A stretch of 64,000 bases of DNA from an uncultured Pseudomonadota bacterium. Lineage in GTDB: Bacteria > Pseudomonadota > Alphaproteobacteria > UBA9219. Position numbers and translations under genes: made by a program. The stretch spans positions 30,031 to 94,030 of the forward strand of contig CAIXHP010000023.1 of NCBI GenBank assembly GCA_903919315.1, written 5' to 3'. Within the stretch, counting starts at the first letter, position 1. Each line of letters starts with the position of its first letter. Positions 6,680 through 41,187 of the stretch are shown here, one piece after another. The notes beneath the pieces are model-generated. The model worked only from the letters and a program-made list of their open reading frames with translations. It had not been told where the DNA came from and ran no database searches.

Positions 6680-8650
6680 TTAATCCAGATAACTTGAGCG
6701 GTGAACTTTGTGTTTGGAAGAATGTTTCGTGTGCAGCACGCCCGCTATGCGTTCAGCGGGTTTGTCGGGCTGCAGTCCTTCTTCGTCCTTTACGACGCCG
6801 ACTTGCTGTTCCAGTTCCTTCCACTTGCGTTCATGGAACCAGTCAATCCCCACAAGCCACGCGGCGGCGCGCGCATAAACCCGGCAATCCAGCGCCTCGT
6901 TGCGATCCCTGATCTTCTGCCATTCGAACTTTGAGAAGCCGCGTTTGGTTTTTACCGTAACCAGTTGCTCTGCCGTGAGCTGTTTGATCCAGTCATCTGT
7001 CGTGCCTTGCGGCAGATGGATGGTGCCGGGCGCGAACAGAACGCCTTGAGCTAATTCCTCAGCCGTAGGCCGCGCTAGACGCAGGAAACGATAGGTCTCC
7101 GCCTTGAACGTCGAACCCGCGACCGTCCATATCTTTGCGCCGCGCCGAATCTTGCGCCCGCCTTCGGTCGCGTCCACATACGTCGGCCCGGAAACGGGGC
7201 TGGCGCGGTTAAAACTATCCACCCCCTTGACCGCGATGACCTGAGGACTCCCCATCTTACGCGTCCAGCTATAGACGGCAGGAGCAGCGTGGCCGGAGTC
7301 GATGGCCAGTTTAGCAATCGTCAACTGCGGGCCGTTCTCATGCGGCCATGTGCGCGTGAGCAAGGCGGTCAGATCATCCCAGACCTGCTGGTCATCCGGC
7401 CCACCATTAAGCACAATATGATCGACCAGCCAGCTTTCAAGGCCGCGACCCCACGCCCAGATGTCGGCTTCGATGCGGTCTTTTTGAACGTCAACGCCTG
7501 CGGTGAGGAATAATCCGCCTTTGGGCACAATACCGATATGGCAAGTCTCCCTGCGGTCGCAGAGGATTTGCCAATCGGGCGCTTCGCCGCTCTCAACCCA
7601 TGTTTCGCCAAGCACGCTGTTCTTGAATCCTTTCAGGGCTTCGTCGTTGCCTTGCGCCGCTTCCCATTCCCGCACGATACGCTCCCAACTCAGCCAACCA
7701 TGCGGCGAATAAAGACTTGAGATGTGGAACCCAACCGTCAACGGATCGGCGCTGACGGCTGTTGCCCGCCACTCGCCGTTCTCCAGCATGAAGGTTTTGT
7801 GCCGCTCTTCGATCCGCGCCTCGCAGTGCTCGCAGAAATAGGCAGCCGACTCCGGATGACCTTTCTCCCAGCGCAGACGCTCAAACTTGAGAACCTGCTT
7901 TTCGCCGCAGTGGGGACACGGCACGAAATATTTACGCTGGTCGCTCGCTTCGTATTCGCGTTCGATGCGCGAGATGCCCCTGATCGTGGGCGTCGAGCAC
8001 AGGAACACTTTACGTCGCCACGCGAAGGTGCGTGTGCGGGCTTCGGCCAGCGCAACAGGATCGCCTTCTTCCCCCGCGCTGGCGGGATAAGCGTCGATCT
8101 CGTCCAGAAACAGATACCGCGCGGGCATCGAGCGAAGCCCAACCGCGCTGTTCGCGCCAGTCATCACCAGAATGCCGCCCGGAAACTCTTTCGAAAGAAT
8201 TGTGTTGCCGCTGTCCCGTGACCTTGGAGGCGCAACGCGCTCGCGCAGCACCGGACATTCCTCAATCAGCGGTTCGATGCGTTGCTGACTAAAGCGTCGC
8301 GCAAGTTCGACCGTAGGCTGTACCGCCATCATCGGGCCGGGCGCGTGATGGATGACATAACCGATCCAGTTATTGCCGCATTCCGTGCCGCCTAGCTGCG
8401 CGCCTTTCATCAGAACGATGCGCTGGTAAGGCGAACATGGCGACAGCGCGTTCATAGGCTCGCGCAAATACGGTGTCCGGCTTGTGCGCCAAGGCCCGGC
8501 TTCGTTTGCGCCGCGCGGCGAAAGAATGCGGTTCTCGTCGGCCCACGTTGGCACGGTGTGATCCGGATCGGGCCTTAGGCCATCGGCCCAGCCGCGCAAA
8601 ATCTCATCCGCGCCGTCGAAGGCGGCGAAGTTTTCTTCGATGCCGACCAT
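6680..8650 (-). CDS. terminase large subunit (lambda gpA-like)
   Basis: 656 aa; ATPase and nuclease regions; ATGA overlap with the upstream TerS gene. Confidence 0.85.
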   Translation of the reverse strand: MVGIEENFAAFDGADEILRGWADGLRPDPDHTVPTWADENRILSPRGANEAGPWRTSRTPYLREPMNALSPCSPYQRIVLMKGAQLGGTECGNNWIGYVIHHAPGPMMAVQPTVELARRFSQQRIEPLIEECPVLRERVAPPRSRDSGNTILSKEFPGGILVMTGANSAVGLRSMPARYLFLDEIDAYPASAGEEGDPVALAEARTRTFAWRRKVFLCSTPTIRGISRIEREYEASDQRKYFVPCPHCGEKQVLKFERLRWEKGHPESAAYFCEHCEARIEERHKTFMLENGEWRATAVSADPLTVGFHISSLYSPHGWLSWERIVREWEAAQGNDEALKGFKNSVLGETWVESGEAPDWQILCDRRETCHIGIVPKGGLFLTAGVDVQKDRIEADIWAWGRGLESWLVDHIVLNGGPDDQQVWDDLTALLTRTWPHENGPQLTIAKLAIDSGHAAPAVYSWTRKMGSPQVIAVKGVDSFNRASPVSGPTYVDATEGGRKIRRGAKIWTVAGSTFKAETYRFLRLARPTAEELAQGVLFAPGTIHLPQGTTDDWIKQLTAEQLVTVKTKRGFSKFEWQKIRDRNEALDCRVYARAAAWLVGIDWFHERKWKELEQQVGVVKDEEGLQPDKPAERIAGVLHTKHSSKHKVHRSSYLD

Positions 8651-11286: not shown

Positions 11287-11493
11287 ATGACAAACGCAAC
11301 GCGATATCCCGACGTCAGTGTTCAACTGACTGGCAACGACGGCAACGCCTTCAATCTTCTTGGCCTATGCCAACGCGCCGCGCGGAAAGCCGGTCTACCG
11401 GACGATCAGATCAAGACATTCATGGCCGAAGCCACCGGCGGCGACTACAATCACTTGCTGGCGACCTGCCAGCGTTGGTTTGACTGTCACTGA
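11287..11493 (+). CDS. small hypothetical protein
   Basis: 68-aa ORF with AAGGGG RBS. Confidence 0.4.
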   Translation: MTNATRYPDVSVQLTGNDGNAFNLLGLCQRAARKAGLPDDQIKTFMAEATGGDYNHLLATCQRWFDCH

Positions 11494-12692
11494 TCGGCCT
11501 TGGCCAGTTCAGCTTTCTTCCCAGTAAACTCCTCCCACCGTTGGACAATCACGTCGCAGTACTTGGGATCCAACTCGATCAGCCGCGCTTGCCGTCCCAG
11601 TTTTTCACAGGCGATCAGCGTGGTGCCGGAACCGCCGAAGCAATCGAGGACAATGTCCCGACTCTTGCTGCTGTTGCGGACGGCGCGTTCCACCAGCTCG
11701 ACCGGCTTCATGGTCGGGTGAAGATCATTGACGCGTTGCTTGTTGACGAACCACACATCGCCTTGATCGCGCGCGCCGCACCAGAAATGATCTGTGCCTT
11801 GCTTCCAGCCATAAAGGATCGGTTCGTACTGGCGCTGGTAATCAGACCGGCCCAGCGTGAACGTGTTCTTCGCCCAGATGACGAAGGTCGACCATTTGCC
11901 TCCCGCAGCGACGAACGCTTTCTGCAGCGTGTGTAGTTCAGAGGACGACATGCAAACGTAAATCGCGCCCTTGCACACCGCGAGCATATTGACGCTGGCG
12001 TCGTACAGAAACTTTTCAAACCCGTCGCCAAGATTGTCGTTCATGATGGTGCGGTTGTTGCCGCGCATCTTATCCTTGGCGGTGTTGCCATAATCGACGT
12101 TATACGGCGGGTCGGTAAAAACCATGTCTGCCAAAGCGCCGTTCAGAACCTTTTCGACGTTCGCCAGCACGGTGCTGTCGCCGCACAGCAGACGATGATT
12201 GCCAAGGACATAAATATCGCCGGGCTTGGTAACAGGCTCGACGGGAACCTCCGGCACGGCATCTTCATCGGTGTTGCCGGTTGCCGTGTCATCTTCCAGA
12301 AGATCGTTGAGTTCGTTTTCGTCAAAGCCAAGCAAGGAGAGATCAACATCTTCCTCTTGCAACCGCGCTACCTCCGCCGCGAGCATGGCTTCGTCCCATG
12401 CGCTGTTTTCCGCGATGCGGTTGTCAGCGATGCGATAGGCGCGGGCTTGCGCCTCGGTAAGATGGCCGAGACAGATGACCGGCACTTCCGTCAGACCCAG
12501 CTTGCGCGCGCCGAGAAGCCGCCCGTGTCCCGCGATCAGGATCCCGCGCTCGTCGACTAGACAGGGCGCATTGAATCCGAACTCGGCAATGCTGGCCGCT
12601 ATCTGTGCGACTTGCGCTTCGTCATGCGTCCGCGCATTGGCGGCATAGGGCAACAGGCGCTCGACCGGCCATTGTTCAACGGACAGGGTCAT
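11487..12692 (-). CDS. ParB-like nuclease domain fused to DNA methyltransferase (DPPY motif; N6-adenine/N4-cytosine class)
   Basis: N-terminal ParB motifs (ILIAGHGRLLGARKLG); Ado-Met MTase motifs DPPY and FGGSGTT. Confidence 0.85.
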   Translation of the reverse strand: MTLSVEQWPVERLLPYAANARTHDEAQVAQIAASIAEFGFNAPCLVDERGILIAGHGRLLGARKLGLTEVPVICLGHLTEAQARAYRIADNRIAENSAWDEAMLAAEVARLQEEDVDLSLLGFDENELNDLLEDDTATGNTDEDAVPEVPVEPVTKPGDIYVLGNHRLLCGDSTVLANVEKVLNGALADMVFTDPPYNVDYGNTAKDKMRGNNRTIMNDNLGDGFEKFLYDASVNMLAVCKGAIYVCMSSSELHTLQKAFVAAGGKWSTFVIWAKNTFTLGRSDYQRQYEPILYGWKQGTDHFWCGARDQGDVWFVNKQRVNDLHPTMKPVELVERAVRNSSKSRDIVLDCFGGSGTTLIACEKLGRQARLIELDPKYCDVIVQRWEEFTGKKAELAKADQ

Positions 12693-14134
12693 GCGGCCGC
12701 ACTTTCATTGGTCAGGGATACACCGCGCGCGGCGGCGGTTTCTTCAAAACTGGTGCCTTCGCCGTCAAGCGTGACAGGGACAGCGGGAAAGATTTCGCGC
12801 CAACGGCGGACGCAAACGTCCACATATTCGGGCGCGAGTTCCATGGCGCGAACCTTGCGTCCCGTCTGTTCTCCAGCGATCAGGGTCGTGCCGGAACCGC
12901 AGAAAGGTTCATAAACGATTTCGTCCGGTGCGCTGTAGGCCTCTATGATGAACGCTGGCAAGCGCACGGGAAACACGGCGGGATGTTCCGTTTCGACGCC
13001 GCGAGCCTTGTGGCGCGTGATGCGAATGACGTTGTCCGGTATACGATGATCCTGCACAGGCTGTTCGGCATGCGTCCATTTGCCGACCGTGCCGTCCTTC
13101 TCGCGCAGTCCCCCTTCATCGTCGTGCATGATGTGGCCAGCCCATTTGCACGGCACGATCTTGTTGGGCCTTCTGGCTTGCCGGTTGAAGTGAAAGATAA
13201 ACTCAAACGCTGGTGCAAAACGCCCGGCCCAGTCTCCCGGCATACCGGTGCCCTGATCCCAAACGTACAAACCAAAGCGCCGCCAATTTTTGGTGCGCAT
13301 CCATTCAAGCCAACTCTGCCAATAAAGCTGCCACTCGTTATCGCGATGAATGAGACCGAGATTGACAAGTACCTGACCGTCATCGCGCATGGGCAGGTTG
13401 GCAAACACGCCCTGCATCAAAGCGTCCCAATCGCTGATGCCGCCGGTCGTGTAATTGCGTTGGTTGCCATACGGCGGCGACGTGAAAAGCAGATGCGCCT
13501 GCTCGCCATCCATCAAGTGGGCGATTGCAGAAGCATCCATGCTGTCGCCGCACAGCAATCGGTGTCCGCCCAACCGCCACAAGTCTCCCGTGCGGCTGAC
13601 GGGAGTGCGTGGTGGCTCCGGCGTTTTGTCTTCGTCTGTGTCGTTGCCGTCGCCTGCAGTTTCTTGTTCGTCCTGCAGCGGCGCGAGCAGACGATCAACT
13701 TCACTTTCGTCGAAGCCGGTCAAAGACAAATCAAACCCTGAGCCATTGAGCGCATGCATCTCTGCCGCCAAAACCTCTTCGTCCCATCCTGCCTGCAGGG
13801 CAAGTTGATTGTCGGCGATAACGTAGGCGCGACGTTGCGCGGGCGTCAGATGATCAAGGATGATGACGGGGACTTCCTCAAGGCCCAGTTGCCGCGCGGC
13901 TTCCAATCGTCCATGTCCCGCAATCACCGTGCCGTCACTTGCCACGAGCAGCGGATTTGTGAAACCGTATTCCACGATGCTCGCTGCCAGTTGCGCGACC
14001 TGCGCCGCGCTGTGCGTGCGCGGGTTTCGCGCATAGGGCGCAAGCCGATCGATCGGCCAGTGCTCGACGGTAGCGGGAAGCGTGATGTTGGGCATGAAGG
14101 CTCGTCGTGGTGGATTCTGGAGTGGATACCGCAC
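12689..14134 (-). CDS. ParB-like nuclease domain fused to DNA methyltransferase (SPPY motif)
   Basis: N-terminal ParB motifs (VIAGHGRLEAARQLG); SPPY and FCGSGTT motifs; track ORF begins at GTG 14134, alternative ATG at 14095; 4-bp overlap with the downstream MTase. Confidence 0.8.
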   Translation of the reverse strand: MRYPLQNPPRRAFMPNITLPATVEHWPIDRLAPYARNPRTHSAAQVAQLAASIVEYGFTNPLLVASDGTVIAGHGRLEAARQLGLEEVPVIILDHLTPAQRRAYVIADNQLALQAGWDEEVLAAEMHALNGSGFDLSLTGFDESEVDRLLAPLQDEQETAGDGNDTDEDKTPEPPRTPVSRTGDLWRLGGHRLLCGDSMDASAIAHLMDGEQAHLLFTSPPYGNQRNYTTGGISDWDALMQGVFANLPMRDDGQVLVNLGLIHRDNEWQLYWQSWLEWMRTKNWRRFGLYVWDQGTGMPGDWAGRFAPAFEFIFHFNRQARRPNKIVPCKWAGHIMHDDEGGLREKDGTVGKWTHAEQPVQDHRIPDNVIRITRHKARGVETEHPAVFPVRLPAFIIEAYSAPDEIVYEPFCGSGTTLIAGEQTGRKVRAMELAPEYVDVCVRRWREIFPAVPVTLDGEGTSFEETAAARGVSLTNESAAA

Positions 14135-14850: not shown

Positions 14851-15032
14851 GTGGGGATGATGTTCGAGACTATGTCGCGTCATGATCGGGCTTTTGCCGT
14901 TTGCCCGCCGCGCGTAACTCTCTCGACCATGCCAAAAAATATGCCAGAAAATGCACAAAGTGCGCAGAACTAAAATGCGTACGACTTTTTCCAATGATTT
15001 GAATCGTTTAACCGATTTTTGCGCCTTTTTCC

Positions 15033-15464
15033 TTATCCGTTTCGGATCATCCGCTTGTAGGGAAAGTCAAATTTCTCTTCCGGATGGGCAAGCCGATGCG
15101 TGATTTTGACGAGCGCAACGCGCCAGTCATGCTGTAGTTTACTCACTGACCAGCCTGTCAGCCTCCCGATGGCTTTCCACCGAATGCCGCATGCGCGGAG
15201 CCAAACGAGTTTGACATCATCGCTCTCAAGCCACATCAGCCAACGCAACGCTTCGTCCATTTCGGTGATGTGCCGTGGCGATGGCGGGCCGGGATGAATG
15301 TGCGCATCTTCCCAGCCGTAGGCTTCCATGGACTCGCGCACAATGGCTGGCCATGTTCCGAAGAAACCTTGCACGGCAACTTTGGGCAGTCGCTTGAGCG
15401 TATGCGCGGCTTGTTCAAGCCGGTCAGCGACGTCGACGACCGTGATGCGCTTGCTGCGGTTCAT
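15033..15464 (-). CDS. phage regulatory protein (putative HTH; hypothetical)
   Basis: ORF 15033..15509; ATG 15464 forms an ATGA overlap with the upstream gene's stop. Confidence 0.5.
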   Translation of the reverse strand: MNRSKRITVVDVADRLEQAAHTLKRLPKVAVQGFFGTWPAIVRESMEAYGWEDAHIHPGPPSPRHITEMDEALRWLMWLESDDVKLVWLRACGIRWKAIGRLTGWSVSKLQHDWRVALVKITHRLAHPEEKFDFPYKRMIRNG

Positions 15465-15778
15465 GGCCGCGCTCCATAGGCGCCGACCTTGAGCATCGCG
15501 CGCGCCCATGCGCAGTTGTCGATTTTGGCAAATTGCAAAAGCGCAATGCGCGCTTCCTCAAGCGTGGTGAAGCCGTAGCGCAAAAGCAATTCACCGAAGA
15601 CAGCTTCGGGCGGCATGCTCTTCCCGTGCATCCAGGACGCCCACACAGCGCCGCTTGAGCAGGTGCGCTCTTCGGCAGGGTCGTAGCGATCACGTACGCG
15701 CACGTCATAGACGCGCCCAGTGTGGGAACAGTTCCAATAAATTTTTGCGTCACGCGCTTTGATCAGGGTTGCTGTCAT
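15461..15778 (-). CDS. hypothetical phage protein
   Basis: 105 aa; AAGGAGG RBS 8 bp upstream of ATG 15778. Confidence 0.55.
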   Translation of the reverse strand: MTATLIKARDAKIYWNCSHTGRVYDVRVRDRYDPAEERTCSSGAVWASWMHGKSMPPEAVFGELLLRYGFTTLEEARIALLQFAKIDNCAWARAMLKVGAYGARP

Positions 15779-15921
15779 CGCTCATGCCTCCTTCGTTGGT
15801 GATGGGAAAAATGGAGCTTGGTTTTTGGGCAGGACACCTTGTGCCCGTGCGCAACTCCCTCGACCGATGGAGGAGAGAACGCTGAAAGCGTCTCTCTCTC
15901 CCGTAGGGAGAGTGGGTTTTT

Positions 15922-16124
15922 GTGAATCTGTGAATCTGGAATAAGCGCCTGAAATAAAAGGCGTATTTTCTAGATTTACAGATTCACGCGCCAGATTCCG
16001 GGGAATCTGGAAATCGCCTTTAAGTGACTGATAATAAATACGTATTCTAGATTCACAGATTCCCGTCGCGTCCAGATTCACGTAAATCTGGCCTAGATTC
16101 ACGCCGCCAAGGGGCAGATTCACG
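15922..16124. repeat. iteron-like array, about 12 copies of AGATTCAC/GTGAATCT with AT-rich patches (putative phage origin or regulatory site)
   Basis: Direct reading: motif copies at 15922, 15930, 15980, 15993, 16003, 16048, 16057, 16074, 16095, 16117 among others; each contains a GANTC site. Confidence 0.75.
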
Positions 16125-16155
16125 CGCGGGTTGGCGGGGTTTTGGAGAGCAAAAT

Positions 16156-18348
16156 TCATGGCTCAACCCCCTCGTGGTAGACCCAGATTTCGGGGTTCTC
16201 GACCGGCAAAATGGCACCGTCGCCAGGCTGCTTGAAATGGGTCGGAAGTAGGAGGGTCATGATGTCCGTGATCTCTCCTGTCTCAGGATCGACGGTCGGT
16301 TCGGCACGCGGAATTTCCATGCCTTCGATGCACATCATGCCGTACTTGCTCTTGGCTCCACGTCCTTCCTTGTTGAACTTGATGAAGCCCTTTGTTGTCA
16401 GAACGTCGATGCGGTCATGAATAGAATGGCGGCCACCGAGGCCTGCCTTGTTTTCGAAGGCTTGGCAGAATTGGCTCGGCGAGTAGAGATGGCCGCGCCG
16501 CGCTTCGTCGAACAGCAATTGCAGGATCACGTCATGACGGCGGCGGCGTTCGTTATCGAGTTTTTCGCCATGATCCTTGTTCACGAGTCTCTTCGAATGA
16601 CGCTCGACCTCGCGCCAGATGCCGTTGATTTTCTCGATGCCTTTTGTCGGGATCGATTGGCCATTGCGCAGTTCGAACATCAATTCGCGCATGGGCTGCT
16701 GCTCGTCAGGGCGGAACATAATGATGCCGGTGGTGTAAAAGCTGCGCAGGCTTGCGGCGCCACTGAGAGCCTGAAAGGGGTCGTCCTCCAGCATTCTCTT
16801 GGTGATTTTCTTGGTGTGGTGGGCGAGAATGATGCCAGCGTTGGGGTTGACCAGAAAACGCAGCTTTTCCACACGATCCTGAAGGAACGCGAGCATGGCG
16901 GTGTTGTCATTTTCATTGCCGCCTTCGCCCGGATCGAACACGTTGCGCAAAGGGTCGATGACGATAACGTCCAGAAGAGCGGGGTCGAAAAACCGCAAAA
17001 TGGCGTCGCGCACCATCTCGACGCCCTTGTCGTCGAGGAGCATGCGCACTTGCGACGTGATGACGAGGTTGTCCCGAACGAGAGGCAGGAACATCGGATC
17101 GAACTTCATCTGCTTCAGGCGTTCGCGCAGGTAGTAATAGCCAATCTCCGCCTGCAGATAGAAAATCCTGAGAGGCCTTGGCGGCTTCATACCGAGAAAA
17201 GCAAGTCCCGCCGCCATGTGTGCGAGAATGATCAAAAGCAAGTCCGTCTTGCCGACTTTCGGCGCGCCACCGAACACCGTAAGCCCGCCCGGCGTCAGGA
17301 TGCGCGGCGCGATCAAATCTTCCGGCATGGGGCTGTCGTCATCGAGAATAGCGCCGACGGTATAGGCAGGAACTGTGGCGACTGGCGCGGCGGCGATGGA
17401 TTCGGGGTGAGCGGTGTCGATGAACACGCGAACGTCCACGCCCTCGGCGCACGCGTCTGCCGCATCCCAGCCTTCGGATTTGTTCTCAGGAAGGGGAATG
17501 ATGCCAACGCTGGTCGCATTGGCGGCGAGAACGGCTTTGGCGGCCGCATGCGCGTAGGACGCGCCCGGCGCATCGTTGTCCGGCCAGATCAGCACCTGTT
17601 TTCCGGCCAGAGGCGACCAGTCTGTTTTGTCGGTTGGCGCATTGGATCCGCACACGGCGCTGGTGGCCGGTACGCCTGCGGCGATAAGCGCATCTGCCGC
17701 TTTCTCGCCCTCGACCAGAATGACCTTTTCGGCGCTTGCGATGCCTTTCTGGTTGTAAAGCGGGCGGCCTGATTTAGGTGCCTCGGCTTTTTTGGTAGCG
17801 GCGTTCCATATTCTGAAGCTCTTTTTCTTCTTGCCTTTTTCGTCCACGAACTCATGCCGATAAACAACGAGCTGAATGATGCCGTTGGCATCCGTGTAAT
17901 TGTACTGCGCGACGGGTGGCCCGATGTCGGGCTGGGATTTAACGGATTTGGCAGTTTTTGCGGTTGGCGTCGGCTCGCGCTCCGCCATGTTCAAAAATGA
18001 GGCGATGTTCCTGATCGCGGTCGTATAGTCTTCTCTCTGGACGATTTTCCAGAGGTCTATCAGATCGCCGAACTTCTGGCCGGTGGCAAAGTCTTCGCCC
18101 ACGCCCATCTTGTTCTTGCGCACGCTGATCTTGAGGCTTTCGCCCGGCGCGCCATAAACATCGCCGCACTGGAACTCTTCGCCGACATAAACGCCGTTCG
18201 GTAAAAGATGATCAAGGATCTGACGATAGCAGTCGGCCATGCGCTCTTTAAGTCGCGCGACATCGATTTTGGCGCGTGGATCTGGCCCGCCTTGCTTGCG
18301 GGCGTCATTAAAATCCATCTCAGACGCCATGCCAGCACCGCTTGGCAT
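16156..18348 (-). CDS. DNA primase/helicase (Toprim domain + RecA-like AAA_25 helicase domain)
   Basis: Toprim motifs VILVEGEKAADAL and WPDNDAPG; Walker A GGAPKVGKTDLLL; 730 aa. Confidence 0.8.
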   Translation of the reverse strand: MPSGAGMASEMDFNDARKQGGPDPRAKIDVARLKERMADCYRQILDHLLPNGVYVGEEFQCGDVYGAPGESLKISVRKNKMGVGEDFATGQKFGDLIDLWKIVQREDYTTAIRNIASFLNMAEREPTPTAKTAKSVKSQPDIGPPVAQYNYTDANGIIQLVVYRHEFVDEKGKKKKSFRIWNAATKKAEAPKSGRPLYNQKGIASAEKVILVEGEKAADALIAAGVPATSAVCGSNAPTDKTDWSPLAGKQVLIWPDNDAPGASYAHAAAKAVLAANATSVGIIPLPENKSEGWDAADACAEGVDVRVFIDTAHPESIAAAPVATVPAYTVGAILDDDSPMPEDLIAPRILTPGGLTVFGGAPKVGKTDLLLIILAHMAAGLAFLGMKPPRPLRIFYLQAEIGYYYLRERLKQMKFDPMFLPLVRDNLVITSQVRMLLDDKGVEMVRDAILRFFDPALLDVIVIDPLRNVFDPGEGGNENDNTAMLAFLQDRVEKLRFLVNPNAGIILAHHTKKITKRMLEDDPFQALSGAASLRSFYTTGIIMFRPDEQQPMRELMFELRNGQSIPTKGIEKINGIWREVERHSKRLVNKDHGEKLDNERRRRHDVILQLLFDEARRGHLYSPSQFCQAFENKAGLGGRHSIHDRIDVLTTKGFIKFNKEGRGAKSKYGMMCIEGMEIPRAEPTVDPETGEITDIMTLLLPTHFKQPGDGAILPVENPEIWVYHEGVEP

Positions 18349-20417: not shown

Positions 20418-21178
20418 GCCGCCTCCGCATCGAAGTCGACGAAACAGCCGCAGCCGCCGATCTCGAACATGTCGATCTGGCCTTTGGCTTCTATTTTTTC
20501 GCGCAGCGCCTTAAGGGTAAGATCTTTCAGAATGGAGACGTTTTTGCCGAGAAACGCGCGTAGTTCCTGTTCTTTTTGTTCATGGTACAAATAGCGGCAC
20601 GGCAACGTGCGCAGCAGGTTGGCAAAATGGCCTTGCCCCGCTTTCACACAAAACCCGCCGCAGTTGTTGTGCGCGAAGCCCATCTCATAGAGACGAGGCG
20701 GTTTGATGCCTGCGTTTTTAAGCCATGCCAGCATCTGGCGTTTGTCCACATAAGGCGGATCGCACATGGGAGCTTCGTAAATCCATGGCAGCTTGCGCGG
20801 CGCGAGCCGGATGATCCGATGCTCTTCTGTCCAGTCGATGCCGACATAGCAAACGGTGTCGGCAGGATCGCAATTCGCCTTAAGCCACCTGTCGGCCATT
20901 TTTCGTTTCAGCGTTTCGCTGCACGGGTCGATTTGGCTGTTGCCGAGAAAGCGGCGGTCGAAGAACACTTCCCAAGGCGTGCGTCCCTCGGCGATTTTGA
21001 CCAGCGGTGCGCCGATGTTCGCCGCTGCCTCATCGATGAAGCGGTACAAATCCTCGTCTTCCATGCGCGTGTCCGTGAACAGCAGCACGGTGTTCGCCGT
21101 TCCATGCCGCTCGACGACACGTTTCGCGGCCGCCCATGAGCCGATGCCGCCGGAAAAGAAAACGACGTGCTTTGTCAT
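20414..21178 (-). CDS. PAPS reductase-like / PP-loop superfamily protein
   Basis: N-terminal VVFFSGGIGS; C-terminal Cys cluster NCGGFC; ATG 21178 overlaps the helicase stop (TGATG). Confidence 0.5.
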   Translation of the reverse strand: MTKHVVFFSGGIGSWAAAKRVVERHGTANTVLLFTDTRMEDEDLYRFIDEAAANIGAPLVKIAEGRTPWEVFFDRRFLGNSQIDPCSETLKRKMADRWLKANCDPADTVCYVGIDWTEEHRIIRLAPRKLPWIYEAPMCDPPYVDKRQMLAWLKNAGIKPPRLYEMGFAHNNCGGFCVKAGQGHFANLLRTLPCRYLYHEQKEQELRAFLGKNVSILKDLTLKALREKIEAKGQIDMFEIGGCGCFVDFDAEAA

Positions 21179-23901
21179 CACGCCGCCTCCGTTTTTCCAA
21201 CGGCGTTCTCGACCAGTTGCCTGATCCGCCCTTTGTTGAACCGGAAATTGAGCAGGCATGACGCGCGGTACTTGGTCATGCTGAAATCGAGACGCGCCGC
21301 TTCGTCGAGAAGGGCGAGTTGCTTTTCACTGGCGGGTTCATTGAGCCACCGGCGCGTTTTATGGGCGCTTTCGCTCGTCTCGTGTTCGTTGAGAAAATCG
21401 TCAGCCACGGCCATCATCACCGTGCGCTCGCCCGTCCCAAGAAGTTGGACGGTGCGTTCATGGCCGCCAACGGCGTGCCAGTACCCATTGAGCCAGAAGA
21501 TCGCGGCCCATGCCGTGAATCCAGAGGCCATCAGGGCGGCGTCATCACCGAACAGGTCAATCCACCGGAAGCTGCTGCGTTTGAGGAGGTCGATTTCCGT
21601 AAGTGAAAAATCTTCAAGCGGAAGTTGATCGACTCCAAGTGCTGCTCCAGCCTCGGCGTTGCCGAACACGAACTCATAACCACACAACGCGCATTCATGG
21701 GCGGAAAGCGGGACGATGGCATCGCATTCAGGACAGGTTTTTGTTGGCGCTTCGCCTTCGTGAACTTTCCCGTCGAGATTGACGTCCTGTTCGAGGCTTC
21801 CGTGCATGAGCGTCGATGTGCCGAAGTCGAGCACAATGCAGTCTGTCTTGATCACGCCCGGATGTTCTTTGGGATCGATCGTGCGCAACCCGCGACCGAT
21901 CATCTGGATCATTGTCGAACGGTACGAGCTGGGGCGCAGCAAGACGACGCATGAGGTCGGCGGGTAATCCCATCCTTCCGTCAATACGGCGACATTGACA
22001 ATGACGCGCGCGCTGCCCTGCTGGAAGCGGGCGAGCGTCAAGCGACGATCACTGTGAGCCATATCGCCATGCACGAGGACGGCTTCAACACCGGAGCGCT
22101 TGAATGTTTCCGTCACGTTTGTTGCGTGTTCGACGGTCGAGCAGAAAACGACCGTTTTGCGATCACCCGCTTTTTCCTGCCAGTGGCTGACGACAGCGCT
22201 GGTTACGACCGGGCGATCCATGATCTCCGCGACTTCGGCCATATCGAAGTCCGCAGCGGTCTTACGCACCTGGCTCAGTTCGTCCTGGACGCCGACATCC
22301 ACGACAAACGTGCGCGGTGGCACGAGATGGCCGGATTGAACAAGCTCGGCAAGGCGGATTTGATCGCCGACATTGTCGAACACAGGGCGCAAAGCTTTCT
22401 TGTCGCCGCGATTGGGCGTGGCTGTCAGCCCGAAGAGCATAACCTTCTGGTTTTTCTCTTTGGCGTTATCGATGATGCGGCGATAGCTGTCTGCAGCTGC
22501 GTGATGAGCTTCGTCGATTACAAGAAGATCGAGCGGCGGCATCATGGTGAGATTGTCGGATCGCGCCAGTGTGGGCGCCATAGCGAAGGTCGCGCGTCCA
22601 CGCCATGATTTGCTGTTCGCGTCATAGATGGACGTGCTGATGGCGGGATTGACCCGCATAAACTTCGTGACGTTCTGCGCGGTGAGTTCGTCGCGGTGGG
22701 CCAAAACGCAAGTCTTTTCGGCAGCGCGCTCTCGGATAAGTTCGCCCGCAACGGCGGACAGCATGATCGTCTTGCCGGAGTTATGCGTAACCGTGAAATC
22801 GCCCATCAAATAGCGGCAATCGCCATCGACCGAAAACCCGATATAGTCGCCACGACCGACGGCATGAACCGTAAATCCGGTTCGAAGCACATTTTTGCGC
22901 TGCCGTCGCGGTGTGGCCTGCTTGCGCACGACGCGCGTGGGAATGAGATCGGTGTCGCCGCTGATATGAACCCGCCAATAAAGGACGCCGTTAACTTCCT
23001 TACGGCTGGGCGTGGCCAGAAAGCCGAGGCTGCGAGCGACAAAAACGACATCTTCAGTGAGCTTTGGGGACTTGCTGCTGAACTCAAAACCCGTTTGCTT
23101 GGACAGGTGACCGTCGGTATCGAGTAACCCGGCGAGCACCGCAAGGCGTGTGTCGCGGCTGCCCAGTCGGTAGCCGTTGGGCAGAAACTTCTCTTCTGCG
23201 CCCTTGCCGTGCAGAGACAATTCGCGCAAGGCGTCGATCAGGACGTTTGCCTGTCCACGCCCGGCGCCAACCAAGTGATAGGTGTTAGCGGCATTATCGA
23301 CCAGTTGTTCACACCGGATAGACAGGCCCATAGCATCGGCGTGGGCATAGAGCGTTTCCACGATTTCCGCATCGGGGGTCGTCACAGCGATGCCGTGCTT
23401 GATAGAGCCGTCGCCGATCAGGACGCCGAAAAAATAGGGATCCAACGCAGGCTTTTGCCTGTAAGGAAAATCGACAGAAAGCCTCAACAGCTTGTGCAGG
23501 TGCCGAAATGTCGACGATTCTGCGAGATAATCGCGCAGCGGAATGTCGATGATCTCGCCTGCGCGGCTTCGTCCGAACTTATCCTCACCGTCGTTTGTTC
23601 GCACCAAGGTCAGGATATGGCCATGATTGACCCGGAATGGCATCCCTTTGATCGGGCGGATGTCGAACATTTGATCTTGGCCTTGATGGATTTCCAGCAC
23701 ACGTCTGCGGGTGCCGTCTGGCCCCATGAGCAGGTCATCGATCCGTATGTTCTCCACCGACTTTTGAGAACCGTCATGCATAAGGATCAGCGTTCCGGGC
23801 GCGTGGCAGCCTGTGGGAGCCACGCCGAGCGTGTTACCGCGCGCTTTAAGCGCAGCGACACAATTATCGACAAAGATTTTCTGACGTGGCCTTAACAGCA
23901 T
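21178..23901 (-). CDS. SF2 DEAH-box phage helicase precursor carrying an intein in the Walker A motif
   Basis: Exteins join to LGVAPTG|SGKT (Walker A); motif II VIDEAHH, III LTATPN, VI QMIGRGLR; C-terminal zinc ribbon CPECD...CALCG. Confidence 0.85.
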   Translation of the reverse strand: MLLRPRQKIFVDNCVAALKARGNTLGVAPTGCHAPGTLILMHDGSQKSVENIRIDDLLMGPDGTRRRVLEIHQGQDQMFDIRPIKGMPFRVNHGHILTLVRTNDGEDKFGRSRAGEIIDIPLRDYLAESSTFRHLHKLLRLSVDFPYRQKPALDPYFFGVLIGDGSIKHGIAVTTPDAEIVETLYAHADAMGLSIRCEQLVDNAANTYHLVGAGRGQANVLIDALRELSLHGKGAEEKFLPNGYRLGSRDTRLAVLAGLLDTDGHLSKQTGFEFSSKSPKLTEDVVFVARSLGFLATPSRKEVNGVLYWRVHISGDTDLIPTRVVRKQATPRRQRKNVLRTGFTVHAVGRGDYIGFSVDGDCRYLMGDFTVTHNSGKTIMLSAVAGELIRERAAEKTCVLAHRDELTAQNVTKFMRVNPAISTSIYDANSKSWRGRATFAMAPTLARSDNLTMMPPLDLLVIDEAHHAAADSYRRIIDNAKEKNQKVMLFGLTATPNRGDKKALRPVFDNVGDQIRLAELVQSGHLVPPRTFVVDVGVQDELSQVRKTAADFDMAEVAEIMDRPVVTSAVVSHWQEKAGDRKTVVFCSTVEHATNVTETFKRSGVEAVLVHGDMAHSDRRLTLARFQQGSARVIVNVAVLTEGWDYPPTSCVVLLRPSSYRSTMIQMIGRGLRTIDPKEHPGVIKTDCIVLDFGTSTLMHGSLEQDVNLDGKVHEGEAPTKTCPECDAIVPLSAHECALCGYEFVFGNAEAGAALGVDQLPLEDFSLTEIDLLKRSSFRWIDLFGDDAALMASGFTAWAAIFWLNGYWHAVGGHERTVQLLGTGERTVMMAVADDFLNEHETSESAHKTRRWLNEPASEKQLALLDEAARLDFSMTKYRASCLLNFRFNKGRIRQLVENAVGKTEAA
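22780..23808 (-). mobile_element. intein (343 aa) with LAGLIDADG homing endonuclease
   Basis: Begins at Cys (codon 23808..23806; CHAPGTLILMHDG); ends ...FTVTHN (Asn codon 22782..22780) followed by Ser +1; LAGLIDADG motifs YFFGVLIGDGSI and LAVLAGLLDTDGHL. Confidence 0.8.
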
Positions 23902-25499: not shown

Positions 25500-25973
25500 T
25501 TACTCCTGCGGTTTGGGTTTGAGGGTGTAGGTCGCCTTGCCCGGCACGACGGTGCGCGCGGGAGAGAAAAGTTTCTGGATGTCGGGAGGAGCGGCGGCGT
25601 ACTTGCGTTCGTCGACCTTGAACTCGGCTTTGACATAGTGCTTGGCCGTTTCGGTCGGAAGAGAATCCAGCGCCGTAACGAGCTTGGCCTGATCCCATTT
25701 AACGGTTTTGCCAACTTCGGCGGCGACGTCAAAACCCATGTCGTCAAGATGAACGACACCTGTGTCTTTTCCCGCCTCAAGCCGCCGTTGTTTTGCCGCA
25801 TCGCCATATTTGCGGTCGAGGGCGCAAATGAGCTTGTCCTTGCGCACCTTCAGGAGCATTGCGTCCTTGTCGAGCAGGTCGATCAAGTCCGCCAGTTCCG
25901 GCGCAGCCAGATTGGCAATGGTCGCGATGTCCATGGCATCAAGCGCGGCGGGATGGAAATTGCGCAGGATCAT
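25500..25973 (-). CDS. hypothetical phage protein
   Basis: 157-aa ORF overlapping both neighbours by 4 bp. Confidence 0.5.
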   Translation of the reverse strand: MILRNFHPAALDAMDIATIANLAAPELADLIDLLDKDAMLLKVRKDKLICALDRKYGDAAKQRRLEAGKDTGVVHLDDMGFDVAAEVGKTVKWDQAKLVTALDSLPTETAKHYVKAEFKVDERKYAAAPPDIQKLFSPARTVVPGKATYTLKPKPQE

Positions 25974-26458
25974 GCCATGCCTCCATGCTGCTGCCCGTAG
26001 AATGCAATCAACGCCGCTTCGGCCAATCCGTCATCCTTGTGACGCGGCCACAGATGCGCATGGCGCGGCATCAACTGGCTGGCGCGGTAGCGGGCGTCGT
26101 CTTTGTTGCTGGAGACTTTGAGTTTGCTCTTCCACGTCACCGGCGTGACAAGCGTCATGGGTAGAAAGTGCGCGGCGACGATGCCTTTGATCGCGCCATA
26201 CGTTTCGCCAAAGGCAAACATGCTGGCGACGCCCTGCTTGGGCATGGACGCGACGCGCTCGATGAAAACATGAACGTGCGAGGCATTTTTCGTCCCGTTG
26301 TCGATCAGCCGCGCCAAGGCATTCAGATCGAGGATCCTGCGGTTGCCCTTGCCTTTGCTGATTTTGAGCGTGGGCAACGCCTCAACGGACATCTCGTCGC
26401 CGTTACGAAAAGCCAAAGCGCCGGACAGACCCGGATCGATGCCGACGAAGAGCGTCAT
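25970..26458 (-). CDS. RuvC-family Holliday junction resolvase
   Basis: N-terminal LFVGIDPGLSGALA, the typical RuvC start; 162 aa. Confidence 0.75.
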   Translation of the reverse strand: MTLFVGIDPGLSGALAFRNGDEMSVEALPTLKISKGKGNRRILDLNALARLIDNGTKNASHVHVFIERVASMPKQGVASMFAFGETYGAIKGIVAAHFLPMTLVTPVTWKSKLKVSSNKDDARYRASQLMPRHAHLWPRHKDDGLAEAALIAFYGQQHGGMA

Positions 26459-26667
26459 ACGGGGATCTCCACGCTGTAGAGATCCTTGTGCTTCACGCGC
26501 CCCTTGGTTATGGCGACGATTTTGTCGGCTATGACGGGGCGCGGACGGCGCAAACCTCTGGCATATCTGGAGACATTCAGGGCTGCGCTGGTGCTGTCCA
26601 TGCCAAGCATTCGCGCGAATTCAGCGTGGGACAGGTCTTTCTCTTTGAGATAATCGGCAAGTTTCAT
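26455..26667 (-). CDS. Cro-like HTH transcriptional regulator
   Basis: HTH LSHAEFARMLGMDSTSAALNVSRYARG; first gene of the leftward early operon; divergent from the CI-like gene. Confidence 0.65.
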   Translation of the reverse strand: MKLADYLKEKDLSHAEFARMLGMDSTSAALNVSRYARGLRRPRPVIADKIVAITKGRVKHKDLYSVEIPV

Positions 26668-26801
26668 AGGCCAAAGACCTATCCCATTTGGCACACTAAC
26701 ACAAGATTAATGTGGCCTATTCGGATGTGCGAATGAAACTATTTGCGTTAACCATCCAGAGCGGATAGGATGCCTCATCCGAATTGGATGGAGTATTAGG
26801 C
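26668..26801. promoter_or_regulatory. lysogeny-switch intergenic region with GGATG/CATCC inverted-repeat operator candidates
   Basis: GGATGCCTCATCC and CATCCGAATTGGATG inverted repeats lie between the divergent cro-like and cI-like genes. Confidence 0.55.
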
Positions 26802-27191
26802 ATGAACAGATTGAAAATCGTACGAGAACTGGCGGGTTACACGCAAGAGCAAGTCGCCACGGCGCATGAAGTCACGGCGCAAACGATTCAGCGTTTCGAG
26901 AAGGGAACGCGCAACGTAAGCCTCGCCTGGCTGGAAAAAATGGCGGAATTTTACAAGGTCAGGGTTTCCACTTTAGTCGATGACGTTGTCGAAGCTGAAG
27001 TCGACGAGGCTCTCATGCGGGAAATCATGGCCTACACGTTCAAGCGATGCGAGGGCGAAAACGTCGATATCAATAAGCTCGCCAAGGTCGTGACCAAAAC
27101 CTACAAAAAATGCCGCAAGATGAAAGAAGCCCCTAAAATGGCCGAGATCAGGGAAAAAGTGGACGACATGCTGACATGCGCCATCGATTAA
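26802..27191 (+). CDS. CI-like XRE-family repressor (no peptidase domain)
   Basis: HTH LAGYTQEQVATAHEVTAQTIQRFEKG. Confidence 0.7.
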   Translation: MNRLKIVRELAGYTQEQVATAHEVTAQTIQRFEKGTRNVSLAWLEKMAEFYKVRVSTLVDDVVEAEVDEALMREIMAYTFKRCEGENVDINKLAKVVTKTYKKCRKMKEAPKMAEIREKVDDMLTCAID

Positions 27192-27195
27192 GCGC

Positions 27196-27576
27196 TCAAT
27201 TTATGCCGTTAAATTCCTGCAAGAACTGCACCGCTTCATCAAACTGATCGCGCGGCAACTCACACAAATCCTCGATTTGGTAGGCCGTGGTAAAAGCCAA
27301 GCGCAGGGTAGCTGGACTGCAAAGAAGGCCGTAGGCGCGGCGAATAATGATGCCTTCCAAACTTTTAATCTGATGGTCACAAATTGGGTTGTACACCCCT
27401 GCCGGTAAGGGCGTCTGTCCAGAAGAAAAAAGATCCTCCTCTTCGGCCATTTCCTCAAAGACGAGGGGCACTATTTCTTTGTAATCGCTCATAAAAATCA
27501 TTCGCAGGAGAAAATCGGTTACCAAAAACCGGCAAAACATGTTGTTAATAATGCCCGAAAAAAACGGCAAAAGCAA
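27196..27576 (-). CDS. hypothetical cargo protein (low-GC)
   Basis: ORF in the AT-richer segment; probable shorter start MSDYKEI at 27492; no clear SD. Confidence 0.4.
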   Translation of the reverse strand: MLLPFFSGIINNMFCRFLVTDFLLRMIFMSDYKEIVPLVFEEMAEEEDLFSSGQTPLPAGVYNPICDHQIKSLEGIIIRRAYGLLCSPATLRLAFTTAYQIEDLCELPRDQFDEAVQFLQEFNGIN

Positions 27577-27659
27577 TTAAAATCTTGACTTTTAGTATCA
27601 TATAGTCAGACTTTACGTATTAACGATATGTAAAGCATAATTGGAATAGAAAGCATACT

Positions 27660-28316
27660 ATGGCACTCACCCCAGACCAGCTCCGCGCCGCCCGTGCGCT
27701 TTTGAATATCTCGCAAGACAGCCTTGCTAAAGGATCCGGCGTTGCTGTCACGGCCATACGCCAATACGAGTTGGGTATTACGACGAACCTGCAGCAGAAG
27801 ACGGAAAACGCCTTGCTCTCTTTCTTCGCGGATAAGATCGAGTTCATCGGCACGCGAGGCGTTGCGCAACGGGAAGCAGATCAGCTGATCCTGGACGGCG
27901 AGAACGTGATTGCGCAGATGTTCGAGGACATACATGCGCATTTGTGCGGGCAGGAAGGGGCGGAAGCTCTATTCTTGTGCGGCGATACGCCTTGCCTGTT
28001 CTCTCCGGAGCTTATCGGATACAGCGTAGCCCTGCAGGAAGCCGGTTTTACCTATCGTTCCGTTTGCCAAAAAAAGAACAAGGCTGCGTTTACGCGCATC
28101 ATTCCGGCGAACTACGCACCGCTCCCCTTTCAAGCCGTCTATGGTTCAACGGTCGCGCAGATGATCAATCATAACCGCATTCTTCTGGTGCGCTCGCCCA
28201 TGCTGGCGAAAGGGCTGCGACAAACGTTCGAGCTGCTTTGGGCCTTCATCCCTGCATCTGAAGCAGAAAAATCCGATGAGGACGCCACAGAAGAAGGTGA
28301 AGCTCTCAGGGCATAA
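27660..28316 (+). CDS. XRE-type HTH protein with uncharacterised C-terminal domain
   Basis: N-terminal LRAARALLNISQDSLAKGSGVAVTAIRQYELG; AT-rich promoter-like region upstream. Confidence 0.6.
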   Translation: MALTPDQLRAARALLNISQDSLAKGSGVAVTAIRQYELGITTNLQQKTENALLSFFADKIEFIGTRGVAQREADQLILDGENVIAQMFEDIHAHLCGQEGAEALFLCGDTPCLFSPELIGYSVALQEAGFTYRSVCQKKNKAAFTRIIPANYAPLPFQAVYGSTVAQMINHNRILLVRSPMLAKGLRQTFELLWAFIPASEAEKSDEDATEEGEALRA

Positions 28317-28947: not shown

Positions 28948-29412
28948 ATGACGCCGATTATGCGGCAGATCAAAGAACTTCAGGACAAAAGCTTCGCCGA
29001 ACTTAAACAGCTTTGGCGAGATTATTATCAGACTGAACCCCCGCCGTACCGGCGCGGATTTATGGCCCGCGCCTTGGCCTATCGGATACAAGAATTGACC
29101 TACGGCGGATTATCCACGAAAGCGGAAAGTCGACTGGACGATCTGATTGCCGAAGCCAAAGGAACAAAAACCAAGAGGCGTTTGGCTCCGGCGAAGATCC
29201 CTGTCGCTGGCACACGGCTTGTGCGCGAATGGCGCGGTGAGAGGCATGAAGTGATCGTGTTGCCCGATGGATTCGAATATGCGGGCCGAAAGTGGGGATC
29301 GCTGACGGCCATAGCACGGCAAATCACCGGCACCCATTGGAACGGGCCGGTGTTTTTCGGACTGCGCAGAGAGCAGCCAAAACCCGTTGTCGTGAACGCG
29401 GAGGCCGCATGA
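28948..29412 (+). CDS. DUF2924-family protein (serine recombinase partner)
   Basis: C-terminal ...ITGTHWNGPVFFGL; ATGA overlap with the recombinase start. Confidence 0.65.
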   Translation: MTPIMRQIKELQDKSFAELKQLWRDYYQTEPPPYRRGFMARALAYRIQELTYGGLSTKAESRLDDLIAEAKGTKTKRRLAPAKIPVAGTRLVREWRGERHEVIVLPDGFEYAGRKWGSLTAIARQITGTHWNGPVFFGLRREQPKPVVVNAEAA

Positions 29413-32330: not shown

Positions 32331-32422
32331 TGGCGGAGGGGATGAGATTCGAACTCACGATACAGTTTGACCCGTATAACCGCTTTCCAGGCGATCGCCT
32401 TCAACCACTCGGCCACCCCTCC
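32331..32422 (-). tRNA. tRNA-Ser (anticodon GGA)
   Basis: Folded by hand: acceptor GGAGGGG/CCCCTCC, anticodon loop CUGGAAA, long variable arm, T-arm GTTCGAATC, encoded CCA. Confidence 0.85.
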
Positions 32423-40917: not shown

Positions 40918-41187
40918 AGACGGGACGACTCCGGACGTGAAAGGAATGGGGGCGCATACTTATCCACAGGAACGCAAAAAGAAAACCCATGTCGATGCCG
41001 CAATGTTTTTAAAGGCAACGCCGCGACTCCGACGGATTCTTTTACCACAGAACATTAGTTTCATTAATCGGAAATTTACCAAAGTGAATCCGATTTTAAC
41101 AAACGGGAGGGTTTCCGAGTCGCTGTGCTTTGTGTGCAACAAATCGTTGCGCGAAGGGAATCATCGCGGCGGTCGCGTGCGTCCGGC

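Follow-up and report, generated by a model that had tools for sequence, protein, structure and literature searches.

What is the function of the dense array of short repeats that occupies positions 15922 to 16124 of the 64,000-nucleotide stretch of DNA considered here (the window, in what follows), which originates from an uncultured Pseudomonadota bacterium (GTDB lineage Bacteria; Pseudomonadota; Alphaproteobacteria; UBA9219; contig CAIXHP010000023.1)? The array starts 32 bp past the stop codon of a gene for a primase-helicase of 730 amino acids (aa; 16156..18348, minus strand), within a prophage that extends from position 1 to approximately 31 kb of the window, and an earlier note had proposed that it may be a phage or plasmid replication origin, a repressor-binding array, or an origin or switch gated by DNA methylation. 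The evidence presented below suggests that the array is probably a cis-acting, iteron-type replication origin of an alphaproteobacterial prophage, with the primase-helicase as the proposed initiator. It adds a new, so far uncharacterised example to a kind of replication module that is already known, rather than revealing a system of a new kind.

The repeat cluster is real and statistically exceptional. The octamer AGATTCAC/GTGAATCT is present in 12 copies between 15922 and 16123, matching the approximately 12 of the earlier note, of which seven are exact (starting at 15922, 15930, 15980, 16049, 16074, 16095, and 16116), four have one mismatch (AGATTTAC at 15972 and, on the minus strand, at 16082; AGATTCCC at 16057 and, on the minus strand, at 16001), and one, AGATTCCG at 15993-16000, has two mismatches and forms the palindrome CCAGATTCC-GG-GGAATCTGG. 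Exact AGATTCAC is found eight times on the two strands of the 64-kb window, as opposed to 1.63 +/- 1.32 times in shuffled sequences (none of the 100 shuffles reached eight copies or more), and seven of the eight are within the array. A scan of the window with a degenerate iteron pattern produced 11 matches in the array, none in the rest of the prophage, and four scattered over host DNA. The enrichment check called for by the note, run within the 64-kb window, thus places the array far above shuffles, with no comparable cluster in the rest of the prophage. Other parts of the original description have also stood: the array is indeed downstream of the primase-helicase gene, and AT-rich stretches separate the repeats, one at 16009-16048 (~69% A+T) and one at 15938-15971 (~62% A+T), in a window of ~58% G+C. 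The GCGCC...GGCGC hairpin that had been pointed out exists as an inverted repeat, but an imperfect one (GCGCC...GGCGT), and it makes up the centre of an inverted repeat of 29 nt (15922-15950 / 15959-15987; 83% complementary; DNA fold of -16.3 kcal/mol, z = -5.5).

As to what such a cluster may be for, the most informative comparison is with related loci. Fourteen close loci were found with the primase-helicase as the query and a further 160 with a profile built from its last 400 residues, and the comparison set consisted of ~130 loci with non-redundant downstream sequence, from alphaproteobacterial metagenome-assembled genomes and viral contigs. In most of these, an array of short repeats is present directly past the primase-helicase stop codon. 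The repeats themselves are different from lineage to lineage. Iteron sequences include GTGAATCTG (the window), TCAATCTGG, GTCATTCTGG (loci L008, L018, and L019), GTCATTCTTGG (L014), ATTCCTGG (L001), CAAACTGG (L024), and TCCCAACTTG (many loci), along with (T)CAATCTGG in the L002 group, GAAATCTGG in L021, and TCCCAACTG in L170. The layouts of L001, L014, L018, L008, L002, and L024 can be superimposed on that of the window, with number, order, and orientation of the sites and the spacers all matching, while the site cores over the window and these six loci, in this order, read GTGAATCTG, ATTCCTG, GTCATTCTTG, GTCATTCTG, CATTCTGG, CAATCTG, and CAAACTG, and within each locus all the sites are replaced in concert. 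Concerted change of the sites on a fixed layout is the pattern expected of multiple sites read by a single, co-evolving protein. The gene that follows the array, on the other hand, is not constant: an open reading frame (ORF) of 105 aa is found at this position in the window, L001, L014, and L018, and a gene for a RuvC-like resolvase in most others, linking the array to the primase-helicase gene and not to the gene downstream, and the 105-aa gene is indeed not linked to the array across relatives. Position and layout that are conserved while the repeat turns over in concert are a signature of an iteron origin co-evolving with its initiator, as in SaPI Rep/ori (the Staphylococcus aureus pathogenicity islands) and in P4 alpha. 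The origin proposed in the earlier note has thus gained strong comparative support, from the same place and layout, a different repeat, and a constant linkage to the primase-helicase.

The shared layout, followed on the gene strand from the primase-helicase stop codon, begins with two single sites ~21 bp apart (in the window, 16116-16123 and 16095-16102, thus 16095..16123, minus strand, GTGAATCT on the gene strand), whose positions are equivalent in the six superimposable loci. These are followed by an inverted pair (CCAGATTCAC|GTAAATCTGG, 16074-16089) and a tandem pair with 8-bp spacing (16049-16064), together 16049..16089, and by the AT-rich central spacer (16009..16048), a candidate DNA-unwinding element by its composition only. 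Next are a second inverted pair (CCAGATTCC GG GGAATCTGG, 15993-16008) and a second tandem pair (15972-15987), together 15972..16008, then the second AT-rich spacer (15938..15971), which is the centre of the 29-nt inverted repeat, then a terminal tandem pair in the opposite orientation (15922..15937, GTGAATCT twice on the plus strand), and finally a structured double hairpin (15855..15912). The central spacer contains a motif, TATCAGTCACTTA (minus strand, 16033->16021), that matches the consensus WATCAANNNNTTR for the IHF protein at 12 of 13 positions, and a weaker motif of this type (11/13) is located in the second AT-rich spacer (minus strand, 15954->15942). In L001 and L014 the match is perfect and is found at the same offset as the central-spacer motif of the window. 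Over 129 loci, IHF-like motifs with at most one mismatch number 80 on the gene strand and 32 on the opposite strand, versus 6.9 in shuffles. A CtrA box was considered for the same segment and rejected: a single TTAA-N7-TTAA with one mismatch (TTAAGTGACTGATAA, 16020-16034) overlaps the central-spacer IHF-like motif, but such matches in the window (10, with 6 expected) are not above chance, and this one, judged by eye, is not retained in L001.

The double hairpin, CTCTCCC-TAC-GGGAGAG followed by GAGAGACGC-TTTCA-GCGTTCTCTC, with outer pairing to GAGGGAG, folds as DNA with ~-16.4 kcal/mol, whichever strand is used (z ~-3.7 to -4.0). In 24 diverse loci the array is followed by structured elements, unrelated in sequence, that fold with -24 to -48 kcal/mol per 66 nt, and an alignment of seven sequences of the double hairpin reveals compensatory changes in 6 of 15 pairs. 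Candidate roles are a signal for the entry of primase or of single-stranded DNA (ssDNA), comparable to the ssi sites of RSF1010, or a structure in the RNA. An Rfam scan of 15400-16400 returned no RNA family, only sub-threshold matches resembling microRNAs, which reflect the palindrome. A conserved terminator can be discounted: terminator-like hairpins are found on the plus strand, but the T-run is not kept in relatives.

Which protein would read these sites? The primase-helicase is composed of a Toprim region, a RepA/DnaB-like AAA_25 core (Pfam AAA_25, E 3.6e-18; PHROG 239 'DNA primase/helicase', E 1.9e-55), and a C-terminal domain; Toprim is matched only weakly, with E 1e-3, which falls short of the Pfam cut-off, and no SF3 helicase family was matched in Pfam. 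Its nearest phage relatives are the 'RepA' proteins of Wolbachia WO, at 30-34% identity, with no close phage relatives in INPHARED and no exact match on record, and no small plasmid was found that uses a close homologue as its replicon, the plasmid matches being prophages in megaplasmids or chromids. An AlphaFold2 model of residues 576-730 (the C-terminal 155), built with 31 homologues, shows three helices followed by two strands with a wing between them, at a pLDDT of ~91, and nearly all of the top Foldseek matches in the PDB are winged-helix DNA binders (Fur, PadR, ArsR). The C-terminus of the primase-helicase thus models as a winged helix, with the recognition helix GGRHSIHDRIDVL and the wing KFNKEGRGAKSKYG, in approximately residues 600-690 (approximately 16279..16551, minus strand), and this is the proposed iteron reader. 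No other initiator was found in the annotated parts of the replication module, and the 105-aa downstream protein and the DUF6362 protein were discarded as candidate iteron binders, most array-bearing relatives being without both at that position.

Some variation in the predicted reader follows that of the sites. Within the AATCTGG/ATTCTGG iteron classes, the recognition helix (GGxHSIxDRIDVL) varies little, and the helix classes xHSIxDRIDVL, KDTIRERISVL, and KDTIRDRLNVL pair with different iteron classes. The wings ADLSV (L014) and EDLSV (L001) go with an iteron that is one nucleotide longer, ATTC[C/T]TGG, while L018, a near-sister of L014 with an identical recognition helix, has the wing DGAA and the shorter iteron ATTCTG. 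The covariation of wing sequence and length with the iteron is suggestive, coming as it does from few independent lineages and being partly confounded by phylogeny.

An origin of this kind might function as follows. Approximately 12 sites (consensus GTGAATCTGG, gene strand) would be bound by the C-terminal winged helix of the primase-helicase. The sites, in both orientations, flank the two AT-rich spacers, of which the central one, with its IHF-like motif, would perhaps be bent by IHF. The RepA-like helicase would multimerise on opposed iterons, melt an AT-rich spacer, and load itself, its own Toprim domain would prime synthesis, and the double hairpin past the array would be part of the module. 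The winged helix as the binder, melting at the spacers, participation of IHF, and the start of replication at the array are what we infer from the arrangement. Along the prophage, cumulative GC skew reaches its lowest value at ~14-16 kb, though the genes on both sides share one orientation.

Several observations weigh against an origin so conceived. Few or no downstream repeats are present in L022, L025, L026, and L029, and only three in the L067 group. The IHF-like match of the window is only 12/13, and the motif is missing in several relatives; no DnaA box (with up to two mismatches) was found within 14861-16864. A sequence search with the primase-helicase against the PDB gave no matches, the Foldseek matches of the C-terminal domain are weak (best E 0.16), and a GC-skew minimum is weak evidence in a prophage of 31 kb. 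As to specificity, the wing-iteron covariation comes from a handful of lineages in which phylogeny is a partial confounder, and the recognition helices of the window and L001 are identical while their iterons are different, so specificity would have to reside in the wing or elsewhere.

Arrays of sites can also serve transcription. The array separates the replication module from the genes downstream within a long operon of uniform direction, its palindromic pairs resemble operators, conserved hairpins are found 3' of it, and an ORF with signals for translational coupling crosses it, a clear sign that downstream expression matters. A regulator, possibly the same winged helix, might therefore use the array as an operator or roadblock to control read-through into the 105-aa ORF, the DUF6362 gene, the methyltransferase (MTase) genes, and the late genes, with no initiation taking place. 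We consider this quite unlikely. The downstream gene changes across lineages while the array stays with the primase-helicase, and a layout of 12 sites, a pair of AT-rich spacers, and an IHF-like site is that of an origin (PMC9371898). The promoter scan of the region found no sigma-70-like promoter on the gene strand, and the sole match is antisense (16008-16035, plus strand, TGGAAA-16-GATAAT, pointing from the central spacer into the 3' end of the primase-helicase gene), which may be a simple effect of AT-richness. A CI/Cro-like switch is, moreover, encoded at 26.4-28.3 kb (26455-28316, at the start of the operon), 11 kb away, making the repressor-binding array of the earlier note unlikely. 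An operator role as a second function, with origin and autoregulation combined, is possible and is compatible with the reading of the array as an origin.

Repeats accompanied by IHF and methylation sites may also bring to mind packaging: the pac site of phage P1 is an array of hexamer repeats with Dam sites and an IHF site. By this analogy, and with ParB-domain proteins encoded by the prophage, the array could be a pac/cos or a centromere site, bound by a small terminase or by ParB-like proteins. Such a role is extremely unlikely, as the terminase, of the lambda gpA type (6680-8650), is encoded 7 kb and approximately 10 genes away, the array accompanies the primase-helicase gene across the related contigs, the ParB domains are fused to MTases, with no helix-turn-helix (HTH) family recognized by Pfam or PHROG, and integration by a serine recombinase (29292-30791) leaves no obvious need for a centromere.

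The origin proposed here is covered by a reading frame. This frame, orfX (125 codons, -1 frame, 15782..16159, minus strand), starts with an ATG that overlaps the primase-helicase stop codon (ATGA), is preceded by a Shine-Dalgarno (SD)-like GAGGGGG, crosses the entire origin, and stops 3 nt short of the ATG of the next gene. An ATGA or GTGA overlap with the primase-helicase stop codon is found in 132 of 169 loci, with an SD-like GAGG motif upstream of the start, and in many relatives the frame continues into the RuvC-like gene, resulting in an ORF of ~315 codons. In the 14 close loci the frame is free of stops without exception, as opposed to two to eight stops in most of the other five frames, the exception among the latter being the antisense -0 frame, with zero to one stops in several loci. 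Among 24 sequence clusters (<70% identity), the orfX frame is open in 15, versus four and three for the other two forward frames, and indels in it are multiples of three or are compensated within ~20 nt. A programmed -1 frameshift into orfX can be dismissed, as no slippery heptamer is present upstream of the stop codon in any lineage, the conserved elements being the SD-like motif and the ATG/GTG.

The open frame, the ATGA overlap, and the SD-like motif would all be expected if orfX encoded a genuine protein, of which the repeats were simply codon-level repeats. This is very unlikely, since variable sites are distributed evenly over the three codon positions of orfX (58/58/60; in a second group of loci 10/12/9 and similar) and the flanking genes are strongly biased toward the third position (49/25/158 and 37/33/120), and since the iterons, being in both orientations and in different phases, would translate into different peptides; the product also has no match to a Pfam or PHROG family. 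Judged from these substitution patterns, the frame appears instead to be maintained although the peptide is not under selection, and we infer that the act of translating through the origin is what matters. Possible benefits are the avoidance of Rho-dependent polarity downstream, translational coupling, or a link of transcription and translation to origin function.

Methylation is the remaining part of the original proposal, and some of the observations behind it have stood. GANTC, the CcrM target, is strongly enriched in the array, though the count is 10 and the expectation 0.46, in place of the approximately 11 and 1 stated (144 sites in the window; 10 in the 203 bp of 15922-16124; Poisson P ~7e-11), and the next densest 203-bp stretch of the window has five sites. 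The site is not present in every copy, as had been asserted, but in 10 of 12, the two AGATTTAC copies being without it. The two ParB-MTase fusions were correctly recognized (12689-14134 and 11487-12692, together 11487..14134, minus strand), but they belong to the context only. Prophages often carry fusions of this type, for which a role in anti-defence has been suggested (PMC12704722). When compared to CcrM (6PBD), the two align only over 57-90 residues around the motifs that bind S-adenosylmethionine, in the motif I region (E 3e-6 and 1e-9), and their catalytic motifs, SPPY in 12689-14134 and DPPY in 11487-12692, suggest an N4-cytosine and an N6-adenine enzyme, respectively, rather than two CcrM-like enzymes.

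Could N6-adenine methylation of the iteron GANTC sites, by host CcrM or by a phage MTase, nevertheless control the binding of the initiator, with the fully methylated, hemimethylated, or unmethylated state timing the firing of the origin? The density of the sites is one reason to consider this. Another is their position, as both methylatable adenines fall into the AATC core common to many iteron types, so that methylation would face the reader. A third is that outside the array the prophage (1-31000) is 2.4-fold depleted of GANTC (35 versus 84 expected) and host DNA (33000-64000) is not (95 versus 109), which would make the origin the main GANTC target of the phage. CcrM is conserved in Alphaproteobacteria (PMC6090056), and, the host being an alphaproteobacterium, its CcrM would probably methylate the GANTC sites of the array, although ccrM is not among the genes in the window; precedent exists for iteron binding that is dependent on methylation, and GANTC-rich origins are known for repABC replicons (PMC6090056). 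However, ~128 related arrays, including those of the same architecture, possess zero to four GANTC sites, and most iteron types, such as CAATCTGG, CATTCTGG, CAAACTGG, and CCCAACTTG, cannot contain one. The GANTC sites of the window arise because its lineage has a G at the variable position before the shared AATC core, and with the core fixed a preceding G is expected by chance in approximately a quarter of the variants. The phage MTases match CcrM in the motif I region only, one of them being of the SPPY type, and RepC of repABC replicons binds in vitro independently of methylation (PMC6090056). GANTC therefore looks like a side effect of the version of the repeat carried by this phage, and not like a conserved design feature, and a methylation-gated origin or switch, which the earlier note had found plausible, is not supported by these comparisons and is, in our view, unlikely. 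CCNGG is depleted in both the prophage and the host flank (ratios of 0.46 and 0.40). Together, the depletion patterns hint that GANTC has been under restriction pressure in the lineage of the phage and that the host has a system targeting CCNGG.

The two peculiarities, the open frame and the GANTC sites, could also be parts of a single arrangement. The origin would be embedded in a translated but unconstrained ORF, coupled through ATGA to the initiator gene, so that traffic of ribosomes and RNA polymerase would couple the firing of the origin, the delivery in cis of nascent initiator, or downstream expression to translation of the primase-helicase, and host CcrM would in addition set the methylation of almost all initiator sites, the rest of the phage genome having been purged of GANTC. 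This combination is a rather improbable one.

The prophage around the origin also carries genes for a portal protein and an S49 protease. A single long minus-strand operon runs from the CI/Cro-like switch through the array to the ParB-MTases, in the order RuvC-like resolvase, AAA_24 ATPase, intein-containing SNF2 helicase, PAPS-reductase-like protein, C5-MTase, Cas4-like nuclease, the 730-aa primase-helicase, the array, the 105-aa ORF, DUF6362, and the two ParB-MTase fusions. The 105-aa gene (15461..15778, minus strand) has its own GGAGG ribosome-binding site and no family match. The gene for the RuvC-like Holliday-junction resolvase (25970-26458, minus strand) is found here at the start of the early operon, by the Cro-like gene, and in most relatives directly past the origin, a place that is taken in this prophage by the 105-aa ORF and DUF6362. 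The SNF2/ResIII helicase gene (21178-23901, minus strand) encodes an N-terminal intein with a Hint domain and a LAGLIDADG homing endonuclease. The window also includes a tRNA-Ser (32331-32422), and the prophage is followed by host genes (dapF, MCP, gyrB), and the GyrB protein shares 84-89% identity with proteins from uncultured members of the Alphaproteobacteria, the class to which the host belongs. The suspicion that the host dnaA/dnaN region is close to gyrB was not confirmed. In host DNA, the segment 40920-41125, between long ORFs that have no Pfam match, contains a perfect DnaA box (TTATCCACA, at 40960), two CtrA-box-like sites with one mismatch (41064 and 41085), and the second-densest GANTC cluster of the window (five in 203 bp), and by these motifs it looks like a cell-cycle-regulated host control region.

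Related loci are widespread. Our scans detected them by the hundreds, in metagenomes from soil as well as from freshwater and marine settings (236 and 413 confirmed matches), with distant relatives in the WO prophages of Wolbachia. The analysis thus provides a candidate origin annotation for a widespread group, along with a candidate DNA-reading surface of its initiator. As seven or more iteron variants share a single fixed scaffold, and a one-residue change in the wing is matched to a one-base change in the iteron, the group is well suited for a specificity swap. Two features would be of interest if confirmed, a frame that is open across an origin without constraint on the amino acids, and a GANTC-depleted prophage with 10 GANTC sites in its origin.

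How does the module compare to those already known? One comparison is with RSF1010 (IncQ), whose oriV consists of iterons, then an AT-rich segment, then hairpin-forming inverted repeats (the ssi sites). RSF1010 also relies on a RepA-like helicase, and the Wolbachia WO homologue of the primase-helicase is annotated as 'similar to RepA of RSF1010'. Iterons, an AT-rich segment, and hairpins are all present here as well, an ssi role of the hairpins being a candidate one. However, RSF1010 employs three proteins, the helicase RepA, the primase RepB', and the iteron binder RepC, in place of a single fusion with a winged HTH, the primase here is of the Toprim and not of the RepB' type, and no homologue of RepC or RepB' was found among the annotated genes. 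Another comparison is with phage lambda, in which the ori iterons and an AT-rich region are inside a translated ORF, gene O, of the early operon. However, the O protein is functional, and initiator and helicase loader are proteins of their own in lambda, while the ORF in question here is without constraint on its amino acids. In the plasmid pRN1, the origin is, as here, directly 3' of the replication gene, which encodes the primase-helicase-winged-HTH protein ORF904, and it forms a stem-loop conserved in structure and variable in sequence (PMC4234260), but no iterons have been identified in pRN1. An MTase target site in the iterons, or enriched at the origin, is shared with ori2 of Vibrio cholerae and with repABC replicons (PMC6090056), and is present here in 10 of 12 iterons. 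In ori2, however, GATC is fixed in the 12-mers of RctB, and binding dependent on Dam methylation has been shown, whereas GANTC is absent from most of the arrays orthologous to the one described here.

Close parallels are found in P4 and in the SaPI, members of the phage-inducible chromosomal islands (PICI). The alpha protein of P4 binds short repeated octamers, and P4 has two separated cis sites, ori and crr. Here only one array is present, the SF3 helicase of P4 is not, and no sequence similarity was detected, but in P4 alpha, too, one chain combines primase (DnaG-type) and helicase with a winged-helix domain at the C-terminus that binds the origin (PMC2777425). In SaPI, the C-terminal winged-helix domain of the helicase binds 6-12 short iterons that directly follow rep and surround an AT-rich centre, at least two opposed ones on each side, and in SaPI5 primase and Rep are fused (PriRep5; PMC9371898). 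The SaPI/PICI Rep helicase is self-loading, and the iteron sequence differs between elements and sets specificity. A C-terminal winged helix on the helicase (predicted in our case), 6-12 iterons 3' of its gene, an AT-rich centre, and opposed iterons are the features in common. The differences are in the motor, which is SF3/AAA+ in SaPI Rep and AAA_25, RepA/DnaB-like, here, in the carriers, satellites of Firmicutes versus a temperate phage of Alphaproteobacteria, and in the surroundings, since here a translationally coupled ORF runs over the proposed origin and a conserved double hairpin comes after it. By analogy, the module would thus work like SaPI Rep-ori and P4 alpha, but outside their protein families.

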